Source: a virus
Direction: 5' to 3' (one strand)
Virus record (IMG/VR): IMGVR_UViG_3300037541_000696
Coordinates: 1 to 64,000 of that record
Length of the DNA: 64,000 nucleotides
Positions 12,310 through 49,440 of the stretch are shown piece by piece (positions within the stretch are counted from its first letter, which is position 1; the number at the start of each line of letters is the position of its first letter). A model generated the notes under the pieces. The model saw only the letters and a list, made by a program, of their open reading frames with translations, had not been told where the DNA came from and searched no databases. The position numbers were made by a program, and so were the translations under genes.

Positions 12310-13166
12310 CCACCACAGTCGCTTACACGCCTATTCTGAATCGTCAGCACTATATCGTGCCAATGCGGATGAGTAGTATTGTGCTGGAGGATGCTGCTAC
12401 TGCCGCCGCGAGCAATGGCTCTGCGTTGAGCGCATGGCTTGATGCTGCTGATGCCATGAGTGGCGTAAAAACTGTCACCACATCTGGCAGTGGATCCACC
12501 TTTGAAATCCTGATCGGATCTGAAACGTTTACGATTACAAACGTTGCACGATCAACTGGTGTTGTAACGCTTACGTTTAGTGCTAACCCAACAGGGAAGG
12601 TTGCTGTTGGTGACTTCATTAAAGTTGCTGCAGTGACAAATACTGGTGTCAATGGCACTTTTGAGGTGAAAAGTGTTACAACAACGGGCGTAACCTACGA
12701 TCAATCTGGAACCAATATCACGGCCGGCGTTGATACAGGAACTGCAATCAGTGGCGTATATCCACTAAATGGATTGGGTAGGCCAATTCTGCTCAACAAT
12801 ATCACTGGTGCTCCGCTTTCTAGTAATACAAATACAGAAAGTGTAATCACTGATGATGCTGTAACGCTTGGATCTACGGTTACGGTTGCACTAAGCGATT
12901 CGCGCAGTGCTGCCGTGAAAGGCATGACTGTTCATCGCAGTCTTGATCACAAGATAATGCAAATCTTTGACACATTTGGAACCGCTGAGCAACTCGCATT
13001 CAAGTATTTGCGAGTTGGGCCAGGTGGCACCACAGAAAAGAAACTGTGCTATGCACAATTTTCTTCAATCTCCGAAGAAGGCGATAGCGGAACTCTCGCT
13101 AAGTTCAATACAACGATGACAGTCTTGGGTCGTGTTTATACAATCTTTGACAATACTGCAGCCTAA
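12306..13166 (+). CDS. Major tail (tube) protein with inserted beta-rich domain
   Basis: Thr/Ser/Val-rich; own late box and strong terminator; adjacent to tail chaperone. Confidence 0.7.
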   Translation: MTTTVAYTPILNRQHYIVPMRMSSIVLEDAATAAASNGSALSAWLDAADAMSGVKTVTTSGSGSTFEILIGSETFTITNVARSTGVVTLTFSANPTGKVAVGDFIKVAAVTNTGVNGTFEVKSVTTTGVTYDQSGTNITAGVDTGTAISGVYPLNGLGRPILLNNITGAPLSSNTNTESVITDDAVTLGSTVTVALSDSRSAAVKGMTVHRSLDHKIMQIFDTFGTAEQLAFKYLRVGPGGTTEKKLCYAQFSSISEEGDSGTLAKFNTTMTVLGRVYTIFDNTAA

Positions 13167-43802: not shown

Positions 43803-43856
43803 AAAAGATGTTTTGATGTGATTGCCGGGATAGGCTCCCGGCTGGCCATAAAGTCT

Positions 43857-44837
43857 TTAGTTCACTCCACAAAGTTGGAGGGCGCTTTCCCTGGCTCGAT
43901 CTACCACGCGGGATCCTTGGCCCCAGGTGGCGGACTGAAACCGCGTGGAAAGTGTGCCATCACGCAGGCTTGTCTCCACCTCTGTAACAGCATTGTAGCC
44001 GCCCCAAACGGTGCCTGACACGCCATCAATATGCGCACCATATCCGCCAACGTAGGCGTTACGAAGTTTCTCCCATTTCCGAGGGGAATCTTCAATTGTG
44101 CCGTGGCGAATGCCTTCAGGGGTTGTCACAGAAGGCATGTTGTAGAGATGACCAAGCCAGATCTTGTAACCTTCAAAATCCATAGGCGTTTCTGCCATGC
44201 GCTTGTACTCTTCAACGTGCTTTCCAAATGTTTGGCGGGCAACGTCTATATTTTTCAGAATTTCATCAATCTGCGCAATGCCGATTTTAGTATGATTGAT
44301 TGAAAATTGTTTACCTGTGCGGGCGCCATCTTTTTGGGCAAAACCTAGAGTATTCATACAGACAACACGAATGTCTGTATAAATACCTCCAAAACTTGTC
44401 ATGCCATCATGGCCAAGATAGCCGACAAAATTACGATGGATTTTATCACCTTCAACGATACTTGCATCAGTACCAAGAATCTTACCTGTAAATGCAACTT
44501 TGGCACCTTTCTTGAGCACAACAACCGTATCCATGATAATGTCATCACGAAGCATTTCTGCGAGTTGACATAAAATTTCGTTCTGGATCAATTCGTACTG
44601 CGGAGAAACGGTGCCAAGAACAACACCATTATCAGAGCGACAAACAGCAACGCGTTGATCAATTTGCTGATAGTCGTCTTCATTTTTGACAAACAGCGGG
44701 CGCTTTTCGACTTCAAACAATGCGCCAGCACGAGTGAAGGCCTCGCGAGCCGGCAACGTGCCTTCGATGACTTCGCCGAGGCTGTGCCAGGCACGTTTGC
44801 CGTTCATCATGATGCCAGAGTGAAAGTTGTGAGCCAT
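43857..44837 (-). CDS. DUF932 family phage/plasmid protein
   Basis: MAHNF..AWHSLG, Y..IQN, RVVCMNT, GTVWGGYNAVTE. Confidence 0.9.
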   Translation of the reverse strand: MAHNFHSGIMMNGKRAWHSLGEVIEGTLPAREAFTRAGALFEVEKRPLFVKNEDDYQQIDQRVAVCRSDNGVVLGTVSPQYELIQNEILCQLAEMLRDDIIMDTVVVLKKGAKVAFTGKILGTDASIVEGDKIHRNFVGYLGHDGMTSFGGIYTDIRVVCMNTLGFAQKDGARTGKQFSINHTKIGIAQIDEILKNIDVARQTFGKHVEEYKRMAETPMDFEGYKIWLGHLYNMPSVTTPEGIRHGTIEDSPRKWEKLRNAYVGGYGAHIDGVSGTVWGGYNAVTEVETSLRDGTLSTRFQSATWGQGSRVVDRARESALQLCGVN

Positions 44838-46301: not shown

Positions 46302-46697
46302 CTAGATTCTTTGCCAGCACCTTTGAGTGAAAGCATTGGCCTGCTCAAATTGATGGTCCAGCGCTCGACCCACCGTGCCATGATATAGCAACAAGACCCA
46401 CTCATATCCAATTTTTTCTATTTCTTCCTTCGATAAAATTACTCCTTCGGGAGTTCTGTCTTTCAGCTTAAAACAGAGAAGGCGGTCTCCCGGCTTAGGG
46501 ATCACTTGAATGCGGGAGACGGGAATCGTTCTTCCCAAAAGCCCGCCCATAAGGGCCGCTGTAGAATGATGACCAACAGCAGACTCCCACTCGAACTCTT
46601 GAAGATTGAGCTTTGCCGATTCCAAGTGGATAGCAATCGCTTCCCAGATGCCGTCACATCCTGAAGGGATAACGGTTGTATTCATTACGTAAAGCAT
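46302..46697 (-). CDS. acrIII-1: DUF1874/STIV B116 family; AcrIII-1-like cA4 ring nuclease
   Basis: MLYVMN, SAVGHHSTA, SRIQV..PGDRLL..L..RTPEG.IL..EEI. Confidence 0.85.
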   Translation of the reverse strand: MLYVMNTTVIPSGCDGIWEAIAIHLESAKLNLQEFEWESAVGHHSTAALMGGLLGRTIPVSRIQVIPKPGDRLLCFKLKDRTPEGVILSKEEIEKIGYEWVLLLYHGTVGRALDHQFEQANAFTQRCWQRI

Positions 46698-47184: not shown

Positions 47185-47294
47185 GATCAAAACGCAAGGG
47201 AAAATGGTGTGCAGAGATTGCCGACTGCTTGGCAGGCTCCCTGCGGGCCAGGGGCTGAGCCCCGGAGGAGGCCCGTTGGCCTCCCGATGGACAC

Positions 47295-47344: not shown

Positions 47345-47598
47345 AAACCTCGATAACCGTATCACTGTGCTACACTTCCGCAAAGATCACATCATAGTTT
47401 ATGGATGAAAAGTTTTTGCGTGAATTTAAGAAGGTTTCGCGCAATCTTTATGGCGCCGCTTGGCGTGTTGCAAATGGGACGCATATTACAAGAAAAGAAA
47501 TAGATGAAGACATGGCTGGGCTTAGAGCAGCAGTGACCGCGTACGGTAATCTGGTGCATTCTGAAGCTAAGCCTCAATAGGCGTGATATAATGAAGTG

Positions 47599-47702
47599 GT
47601 GGGACGGAGTGCGAATCCCCGACGGTCGCCCTAGGCCGGCGAATGAGAGGTTCGACTCCTCGCGGTCCACTGCGGGTCGCACGACTGGCGCTTTCGTCCC
47701 AC
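47599..47702 (+). ncRNA. Structured tRNA-like (T-loop) RNA/leader upstream of thyX
   Basis: TATAAT at 47587; closing stem GTGGGACG/CGTCCCAC; internal TCGCC/GGCGA and GAGG-TTCGACT-CCTC hairpins. Confidence 0.6.
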
Positions 47703-47721
47703 AAACATTATCACTTCCAGT

Positions 47722-49440
47722 ATGGATCCACTTTTTCGCGTTGAAGTCATCGCGCAAACGCCTAATCCTCAGCAATGCATGTACGCTGCAATGCATCAGG
47801 ATTACAGTGAAGGTTTTGTGTATGATGAGCGTGATAAATGGCCGGATGAAACTAAAGCTGGGGAGATCTGTGTAAATAGACTATTGAAAGGAGAACGTGG
47901 GCACTATGGGTGCTATTCAAGTGATACTGAAGTTTTAACTTCTGAGGGTTGGCTCGATTGGCCTAGTGTTACCGCGTCATCTATGCTTGCAGCAGTCGAT
48001 ATTCATACTAATCTAATTTCATTTGAAAAACCTACAGCGCTTCAAAAAGTACAACTTAATGCGGGCGACAAGCTTTATAGTCTTGTTAGTCAAAAGCTAG
48101 ATATATTAGTAACACTTGATCACCGTATGGTAATAACTACAAAAAAACAAGGAAACAATTGGACTGAGCCGTTTTTTGCTTCCGCCAGTGAGGTGGCGGG
48201 CAGGGCTGTTCGCTATAGGCTTGCTGGTAAACTAAAAACACGACATGTTCCTTCGCATTGCCCAAGCGGAGTTGACTTGGTTTCATTGTTTAAGCTTGCA
48301 GGGTTTTTCTATGGTGACGGATGCAGGTCTAACAATATAAATCCAGGATGTCTTCGCTTTCGCCTCAGAAGGGCGAGAAAAATAGCTTATCTCAAAAGTC
48401 TAGGCTTTCATATTGATCAAATGCAGTCTGATAGATTCACGTTAAGAGAAAAAGAAGTGTCTCAATGGGTGCATAAATACTTTACTCATGAAAACGGTAA
48501 GGCGATACCTTCATTTATCATGCATTTACCTAGCGGTCTTTTTGATGCTTTTGCAGATGGATTAAAAAACAGCGATGGGACACTATCAAATGATACATGG
48601 TGTTTTGATTCAAAAGAAAAAAAATCTCTTGATATTTTGCAAGCCGCTTTTCATCTTAATGATAAGCTTGCGTCTTTTTCTTTAAATAATCCAAACGAAG
48701 GAGTTGGGCATGAAAATCATGCTCCTTGCTGGAGGATATATATTTCATCACGCGAGCCATACGCCAGAAGCGAAGTTAATCAAAAAGGAAGAACCCGTGG
48801 ATCAGAGCAGTTAATAAATTATCAAGGGTATGTTTACTGTGCAACTATTTCCACAGGCGCTTTACTCGTAAGGCGAAACAATAAGCCATTTATTTCTGGA
48901 AACTGTTTAGAACATCCACAAATTATCCTTAACTGCGGACACTTTCCGCACTCCGTGATGCAACAAGCTCGGACACACAGAGTAGGCGTGAGTATGGATT
49001 GTCAGTCAATGCGCTATACCGGTGATCGCATTTGCAAAGCCGCCAACGGTGAATTGCCTCTTGAAGAAGTATTCTACTTGCGTCCATTAGGTCATTATAC
49101 CGACCGTCAAGGCAAAAAATATGAATACACCAGTAATCATCGCGCAAAAGATCTTTGGCTTTGCAAATTTGCCGCTGAACGCTATCGCGATCTTCTGTCG
49201 CAAGGTTTTGCTGAAGAACACGCACGCGGAATCCTTCCTTTTGATTATAGGCAACATTTTGTAGTCAGCTTTAACGCAAGGTCATTTATGCACTTCCTAG
49301 ACCTACGCGCAAAGCTTGATGCTCAGCTAGAGATCCGTCAGCTATGTGACTTAATGTGGCCGCACTTTAAGGCTTGGGTGCCGCAGATTGCGGAATGGTA
49401 TGAACAGGCCAGGCTGCATAAGGCACGGTTGGCGCCATAG
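47722..49440 (+). CDS. thyX: Flavin-dependent thymidylate synthase with intein
   Basis: HYG|..|CLEH, QARTHR, QSMRY, EHARGILP, LDLRAKLDAQLEIR. Confidence 0.95.
   Translation: MDPLFRVEVIAQTPNPQQCMYAAMHQDYSEGFVYDERDKWPDETKAGEICVNRLLKGERGHYGCYSSDTEVLTSEGWLDWPSVTASSMLAAVDIHTNLISFEKPTALQKVQLNAGDKLYSLVSQKLDILVTLDHRMVITTKKQGNNWTEPFFASASEVAGRAVRYRLAGKLKTRHVPSHCPSGVDLVSLFKLAGFFYGDGCRSNNINPGCLRFRLRRARKIAYLKSLGFHIDQMQSDRFTLREKEVSQWVHKYFTHENGKAIPSFIMHLPSGLFDAFADGLKNSDGTLSNDTWCFDSKEKKSLDILQAAFHLNDKLASFSLNNPNEGVGHENHAPCWRIYISSREPYARSEVNQKGRTRGSEQLINYQGYVYCATISTGALLVRRNNKPFISGNCLEHPQIILNCGHFPHSVMQQARTHRVGVSMDCQSMRYTGDRICKAANGELPLEEVFYLRPLGHYTDRQGKKYEYTSNHRAKDLWLCKFAAERYRDLLSQGFAEEHARGILPFDYRQHFVVSFNARSFMHFLDLRAKLDAQLEIRQLCDLMWPHFKAWVPQIAEWYEQARLHKARLAP
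47911..48903 (+). mobile_element. Intein (331 aa) with LAGLIDADG-type endonuclease
   Basis: Starts CYSSDTEVLT; block B VTLDHRM; LAGFFYGDG and GLKNSDG; ends ISGN before Cys+1. Confidence 0.95.

Follow-up and report, generated by a model that had tools for sequence, protein, structure and literature searches.

A discrete GC-rich non-coding element, possibly a structured leader, precedes an intein-containing thyX gene in a virus genome

The virus record analysed here, an IMG/VR entry of 78.5 kb rated 100% complete, has a GC content of 46%; its first 64 kb form the stretch of DNA analysed as a whole, hereafter the window. The Synechococcus-phage match of thyX and the lake-water runs containing the sequence together point to a freshwater cyanophage-like virus. 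The genome carries three tRNA genes (Leu-TAG, Met-CAT, and Thr-TGT), all of them distant from the locus described below, which comprises a small ORF, a GC-rich element and thyX (Table 1). The intein of the thyX product starts with CYSSDTEVLT and ends with ...ISGN, followed by Cys. The closest relatives (L002–L004) encode an intein-less ThyX of 241 aa, and the two forms of ThyX are found together in the same lakes.

The 59-aa ORF upstream of the element has five homologues. One metagenome relative (L224) keeps this ORF at 90% identity, followed by unrelated AT-rich DNA. A terminator/promoter scan found no terminator-like site between the ORF and thyX, thus read-through from the ORF into the element is possible. 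Further upstream, the ORF at 46302–46697 (−) matches the Pfam family STIV_B116-like (PF08960, E = 2.6e-23).

Table 1 Features of the thyX locus, in window coordinates
Feature	Position	Strand	Description
59-aa ORF	47401–47580	+	Function not assigned; own early-type promoter; upstream of the element
Extended −10-like box TGATATAAT	47584–47592	+	TATAAT at 47587–47592 preceded by TG-N; no usable −35
Element	47599–47702	+	104 nt, 68% GC; bounded by the closing stem
Closing stem GTGGGACG / CGTCCCAC	47599–47606 / 47695–47702		8-nt inverted repeat, 100% complementary
Hairpin GG(A/G)G-UGCGAAU-CCCC	47606–47620	+	One base short of the T-arm consensus
Palindrome-rich segment	47623–47642	+	Two mutually exclusive hairpins
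T-arm-like hairpin GAGG-UUCGACU-CCUC	47647–47661	+
7-bp hairpin GCGGUCC-ACUGC-GGGUCGC	47662–47680	+	Abuts the T-arm-like hairpin
Spacer to the thyX ATG	47703–47721	+	19 nt, without Shine-Dalgarno sequence
thyX	47722–49440	+	572 aa; Pfam Thy1; TIGR02170 at 169 bits
Intein in thyX	Residues 64–394, nt 47911–48903	+	331 aa; LAGLIDADG-type motif (LAGFFYGDG)

The element occurs once in the 78.5-kb genome. It occupies a GC island at 47592–47706 (68% GC versus 46% for the genome) that ranks in the top 1.2% of 104-nt windows, and the edges of the island coincide with the boundaries of the inverted repeat. The extended −10-like box sits 6 nt 5′ of the closing stem, and the −35/−10 scan did not call it. 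An initial annotation of this DNA had described the TATAAT box, the closing stem and a structure ending 19 nt before the thyX ATG at 47722, all of which are present. The element is non-coding. A reading as coding sequence was rejected, as 47612 C>T creates TGA in the only long plus-strand frame, and the overlapping ORFs have no Pfam or PHROG match.

The closing stem is the sole thermodynamically robust part of the predicted fold, with pair probabilities of 0.87–1.0 in all four natural haplotypes, and it extends imperfectly to ~14 pairs. In the closed fold, the 14-pair stem surrounds a hairpin, the T-arm-like hairpin and the abutting 7-bp hairpin. The interior is less well defined than the initial annotation had drawn it. 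The strings of its second stem (GCGA/TCGC and CCCG/CGGG) are present, but its inner helices reach pair probabilities of only 0.02–0.17. Likewise, the segment at 47623–47642 can form the proposed 'anticodon arm' UCGCC-CUAGGCC-GGCGA (47626–47642) or the competing hairpin CGGUC/GGCCG, and the competing one is preferred (p 0.56–0.82). In an alternative fold, 47663–47670 pairs with 47599–47606 as an acceptor-like 8-bp stem with one mismatch, forming a 72-nt cloverleaf-like unit. Within the full leader, the closed form is favoured over this fold by 12 kcal/mol; in the 72-mer alone (47599–47670) with G at 47608, the cloverleaf-like fold becomes the minimum free energy (MFE) structure. The start codon region is located outside the closed structure, an arrangement that speaks against switching by occlusion of the ribosome-binding site.

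Comparison with shuffled sequences sets the scale for these features. The MFE z-score is −0.98 for 127 nt and −1.2 for the 104 nt of the element, and 63 of 500 shuffles fold equally well. When the 141-nt spacer is shuffled, 11% of the shuffles contain a perfect 8-bp inverted repeat, and the genome as a whole has 301 of these repeats. The motif TGNTATAAT is not enriched in the window (three occurrences versus 2.5 expected). The T-arm described in the initial annotation is present as well, but its motif class (TTCRANT loop on a 4-bp stem) is represented five times in the genome, versus 2.7 ± 1.6 expected, and lies within chance. Taken individually, the motifs of the element are not confirmed to exceed chance. 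A phage genome of this size should contain, by chance alone, about one GC-rich spacer that combines a T-arm-like hairpin with a closing stem, and such a combination calls for caution.

Searches for further copies returned none. Exact scans of IMG/VR with two core motifs (18- and 21-mers) gave 0 matches, and blastn of the element against GenBank phages gave none at E ≤ 10. Scanning reference prokaryote genomes with the T-arm plus the 3′ strand retrieved only unrelated, non-cyanobacterial genes for tRNA-Ala, tRNA-Lys and tRNA-Ile. Two degenerate, T-arm-anchored patterns in IMG/VR retrieved almost exclusively ordinary tRNAs, together with unrelated oddities.

The element is also absent upstream of thyX in eight related loci (L002–L005, L237, L238, L250, and L269/L290), where thyX has a short unstructured leader or abuts the upstream gene. 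In L002–L004, which are closest by ThyX (88–89% identity) and possess neither the intein nor the element, a 45-nt unstructured thyX leader follows a TGTTACAAT box, and a SpoU-family RNA methylase gene is divergent from thyX (2383–2853 (−) in L003, and in the same place in L002 and L004). In the more distant L005, L237, and L238, thyX abuts the upstream gene without a leader. Between 47303 and the thyX ATG, homology with the genomes of the relatives is interrupted. No SpoU gene was found in the 78.5-kb genome; the position of the methylase gene in the relatives is filled here by the 59-aa ORF and the GC-rich leader. On this comparative evidence, the element belongs to a single lineage and does not accompany thyX in general.

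Within that lineage the element persists. At least part of a 601-nt stretch is present in 20 public runs from 16 studies, and contigs from four lake or freshwater runs of four studies were compared. The element is kept with the same flanks in these lake metagenomes and exists in four haplotypes, which differ by 1–4 changes per 104 nt. Among the changes listed, four sites vary within the element: 47608 (A>G in all other haplotypes), 47612 (C>U or C>A), and 47631 with 47632 (C>U together with U>C). Sites 47612, 47631, and 47632 lie in predicted loops. The change at 47608 keeps or improves a pair, converting A-U into G.U in the closed fold, and the A.C mismatch of the hairpin at 47606–47620 into the G-C pair of the other three haplotypes. 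The changes, being in loops or pair-keeping, are thus compatible with both competing folds. As a covariation signal, four variable sites in four haplotypes that all fit both folds have no statistical power, and no homologue was found outside this narrow lineage. The initial annotation had taken a lack of conservation or covariation as the mark of a decaying pseudo-tRNA; conservation is found in one narrow lineage only, which goes largely against its proposal.

Conservation along the locus is uneven. Among the changes listed, none falls in 47583–47607, nor, in the three variant-bearing runs, in 47633–47702, and the spacer at 47703–47721 carries 5–7 clustered substitutions relative to the other haplotypes, with near-identical sequence on either side of it. 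In this spacer, the other haplotypes read TTGTCAC, which resembles a half-site of the early-promoter box. In haplotype X8, divergence steps from ~2% to ~9% exactly at 47703, resembling a recombination boundary. On its left, the element adjoins a block of similarity equal to its own (about 2% divergence). Purifying selection on the element was considered but is not demonstrated, as the element is no more conserved than this left-hand block among the changes listed.

Taken as a whole, the element is a genuine orphan module, linked to thyX by position only. We tentatively favour reading it as an acquired part of the thyX mRNA, either a structured leader or an intercistronic module. This keeps one part of the cis-regulatory leader proposed in the initial annotation, the structured cis leader, as the most likely reading, whereas thyX-specific regulation finds no support. 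In such a scheme, a discrete, horizontally acquired, GC-rich cassette would have replaced the ancestral thyX upstream region, namely the divergent SpoU-methylase gene, an early promoter and the 45-nt leader, in one phage lineage. In transcripts, the element would form the 5′ leader of the thyX mRNA or, through read-through from the 59-aa ORF, an intercistronic segment. The extended −10 box may set the transcript start at G47599, the first base of the closing stem, and the base-paired 5′ end could then hinder 5′-end-dependent decay by RNase E or RNase J. Alternatively, the module may delimit a processed, stable thyX message. Action as a tRNA mimic or as a ligand or protein switch is unlikely. 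Under this reading, the T-arm-like hairpin is either a vestige or a coincidence.

The E. coli ompA leader is an example of the 5′-terminal stabilising stem-loops of bacterial and phage mRNAs. Similar to such stem-loops, the element has a stable helix at or next to the predicted +1, leaves the start codon outside, and is without ligand-sensing architecture. It differs from them in being a lineage-specific 104-nt multibranch structure, and in that its transcript start and stabilising effect are predicted only. Moreover, a neighbouring GC-rich island corresponds to a covarying RNA, described at the end, indicating that GC-rich islands in this genome can be structured RNAs. Several observations weigh against the structured-leader reading: a 104-nt multibranch is larger than required for 5′ protection by a hairpin, orthologous thyX genes manage without such a leader, the fold energy is no better than that of shuffles, the interior fold is ill-defined, and the promoter motif is not enriched. 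If functional, the element would be another case of a phage metabolic gene provided with an RNA leader of its own through cassette acquisition, and would hint at the reuse of tRNA scraps in mRNA architecture.

Nearly as likely as the structured-leader reading, though doubtful in itself, is that the element is a functionless relic, either a decayed tRNA gene or a foreign high-GC scrap that remained, harmlessly, where recombination joined sequences within a hyperplastic early-gene region. Whether a tRNA gene lies at its origin depends on how far the likeness to tRNA extends. The element shares with canonical tRNAs and tRNA pseudogenes (RF00005/RF01852 clan) a T-loop UUCGACU on a 4-bp stem, so that 47647–47661 qualifies as a T-arm with T-loop, in a motif class within chance. 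Further likenesses to canonical tRNA are the unit length of 72 nt, the acceptor-like pairing and a loop of 7 nt whose 33-equivalent position is U. In contrast to canonical tRNA, a 32-nt extension closes an alternative, far more stable stem, the anticodon-like loop is polymorphic, and the D-arm signature is absent. The initial annotation was correct that the D-arm is missing: neither G18G19 nor U8 is found, and the loop UGCGAAU of the hairpin at 47606–47620 does not contain GG. The junctions are also non-standard, with 0 nt instead of 2 before the hairpin at 47606–47620 and 5 nt instead of 1 after it, and the anticodon-like loop CUAGGCC has C instead of a purine at the 37-equivalent position.

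Two of the programs recommended in the initial annotation, ARAGORN and Rfam, do not recover a tRNA here. ARAGORN with default settings calls no tRNA or tmRNA at the element, no tmRNA appears with ARAGORN -m at lowered threshold, and Rfam gives no match at the element at the gathering threshold. Relaxed or mitochondrial ARAGORN settings produce contradictory identities (Arg, Ala, Pyl, and Pro). A permissive Rfam search (500 nt, E ≤ 10) returns tRNA-Sec alone, at 14.1 bits (E = 7.2; cut-off 47 bits), a score which, scaled to the window, is expected roughly once per few windows.

In favour of a relic are the 72-nt unit at 47599–47670 with its four cloverleaf-like arms and canonical T-loop, tRNA calls that appear only under relaxed or mitochondrial settings and are inconsistent, and a tRNA-Sec score of no more than 14 bits. 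The absence of the element from all relatives, the lack of a fold-energy signal and the lack of demonstrable excess conservation over the flanks are likewise consistent with a relic, and the locus is a gene-replacement hotspot in which thyX gained an intein too. However, outside the T-arm region the best score against 1,578 distinct tRNAs is 30, with a shuffle maximum of 29, which is no significant similarity. In addition, phage genomes seldom retain 140 nt of junk, the stretch at 47633–47702 is invariant among the changes listed while the next 19 nt carry 5–7 changes, and all four observed changes fit the structure.

As an observation apart, a tRNA-like element of ~100 nt was found at 12564–12665 (−) of the IMG/VR contig L027, and is identical in L031, L073, and L100. 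A T-arm and a D-arm-like hairpin accompany its perfect acceptor stem of 7 bp (GGCAGUG/CACUGCC); ARAGORN makes no call, and tRNA-Sec scores 16 bits. Its neighbours in all four contigs are a Mom-family gene on one side and an Amidase_2 lysis gene on the other. The GAATGAG before GGTTCGA that this type of element has in common with the thyX leader is frequent in real tRNAs, so it does not indicate kinship between the two.

A tRNA-like processing signal, i.e. a 72-nt cloverleaf-like fold that would arise first in the course of transcription and then be cleaved by RNase P and/or RNase Z, or a Y-RNA-like mimic or decoy, appears unlikely. The t-elements of plant mitochondrial mRNAs and the mascRNA of MALAT1 are tRNA-like processing signals. 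The element resembles them as a tRNA-like fold next to an mRNA, with the potential to guide cleavage by RNase P or RNase Z, and differs in that its tRNA-like conformer is not the stable one. Supporting such a role, the acceptor-like 8-bp pairing with one mismatch abuts the T-arm-like hairpin, the majority base G47608 makes the cloverleaf-like fold the MFE structure of the 72-mer, and one 5′ strand has two alternative 3′ partners. The closed form offers a further parallel. YrlA Y RNAs have the arm order stem-V-T-AS (PMC4201824, Chen et al. 2014), with nearly invariant T and D stem-loops and an acceptor-like hairpin between them (PMC4201824). Their 5′ motif GNCGAAN(0-1)G is the Ro60 contact, and their genes lie within ~4 kb of Ro60 (TROVE) (PMC4201824). 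The element has the same arm order in its closed form: it is ~100 nt long with paired ends, followed by V-like and T-arm-like hairpins and the abutting 7-bp 'acceptor' hairpin. Unlike YrlA, it possesses no D stem-loop and no Rfam match, and is placed in a predicted mRNA leader.

The evidence against a processing signal or mimic is broader. The tRNA-like fold falls 12 kcal/mol short of the closed form in stability, D-arm, G18G19 and U8 are lacking, and only tRNA-Sec appears in Rfam at E ≤ 10. The YrlA motif GNCGAAN(0-1)G is not matched in the element; the nearest string is GUGCGAAUC at 47609–47617, and its would-be C at 47612 is C, U or A among the haplotypes. No Ro60/TROVE domain was found in the 78.5-kb genome. 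Moreover, one natural haplotype carries UC instead of CU at 47631/47632, the 32/33-equivalent positions; this alters the U33-equivalent base, which speaks against an anticodon loop that either works or is mimicked. At the genome scale, none of the tRNA-like features exceeds chance. The tRNA mimic or decoy put forward in the initial annotation is thus disfavoured, its tRNA likeness lying within chance and its anticodon-like loop not being conserved.

A more elaborate variant would be a bistable tRNA-derived module, in which the 72-nt cloverleaf forms first, while the RNA is being transcribed, and strand exchange with 47695–47702 then locks the Y-RNA-like closed form. We regard this as improbable, including the idea that its cloverleaf would be recognised by RNase P, RNase Z, the CCA-adding enzyme, or, as a decoy, a host defence nuclease. 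If true, such a module would make the fate of the thyX mRNA dependent on the condition of the host tRNA-processing machinery.

The element may instead act at the DNA level, as a MITE-like or palindromic cassette or a PeSL-type cassette of promoter plus stem-loop, although this too has a low probability. PeSL of T4-type phages are mobile regulatory cassettes composed of an early promoter and a stem-loop. In common with PeSL and MITEs, the element combines a promoter-like box with a stem, lies in a hyperplastic early-gene region, has terminal inverted repeats and shows a presence/absence pattern. Its perfect 8-bp terminal inverted repeats lie exactly at the edges of the GC island, it is polymorphic for presence among related phages, and the step from ~2% to ~9% divergence at 47703 in X8 is the behaviour of a module boundary. 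In contrast to mobile cassettes, it is single-copy, with no related copies in the sequences searched, i.e. IMG/VR (two exact core patterns) and GenBank phages (blastn). The flanks AGTG and AAAC are not duplicated, which means no target-site duplication, and neither a transposase nor a tyrosine integrase was found in the genome. The 8-nt inverted repeat itself arises in 11% of shuffles.

A thyX-specific regulatory RNA, such as a folate or nucleotide riboswitch or the ThyX-autoregulation operator suggested in the initial annotation, is the least probable of these readings: it has in its favour the position directly upstream of thyX, but none of the orthologous thyX genes examined has the element, as the eight related loci demonstrate, Rfam matches no riboswitch family, the start codon is free of structure, 19 nt outside, and no expression platform or terminator is present. 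An attP or integration site was rejected, with no tyrosine integrase in the genome and no host tRNA match.

The covarying RNA mentioned above is a separate GC-rich element at 47212–47290 (+), 300 nt upstream of the thyX leader element, and recurs in 57 IMG/VR freshwater-phage loci (homologues L234–L290). In a 36-copy alignment, its 7-bp helix shows many compensatory double changes (in 14, 6, and 6 sequences at three pairs) and encloses an invariant UGCCG-loop-UGGCA hairpin. GGGG/CCCC and GGAGG/CCUCC hairpins follow 3′ of the helix, and the last of them sequesters GGAGG just 5′ of a near-invariant ATG (TTG/GTG in two copies). This start-like codon opens a 4-codon mini-ORF in 22 of the 35 distinct copies, and an early-promoter box (GTNAC repeats) is located 40–60 nt downstream. 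The family has no Rfam match and appears to be a phage RNA motif or leader not described so far; covarying, widespread and without an Rfam model, it is more valuable than the thyX leader element. The thyX leader was rejected as a member of this family (covariance model 4.3 bits, E = 6), and the relatives reached through the neighbouring RNA do not carry the thyX leader element. A weak partial match to the model of the family, at 13.6 bits and with the inner hairpins missing, is located at 43807–43874 (+), where it covers the outer helix and the GGCUCCC..GGCCA segment only.
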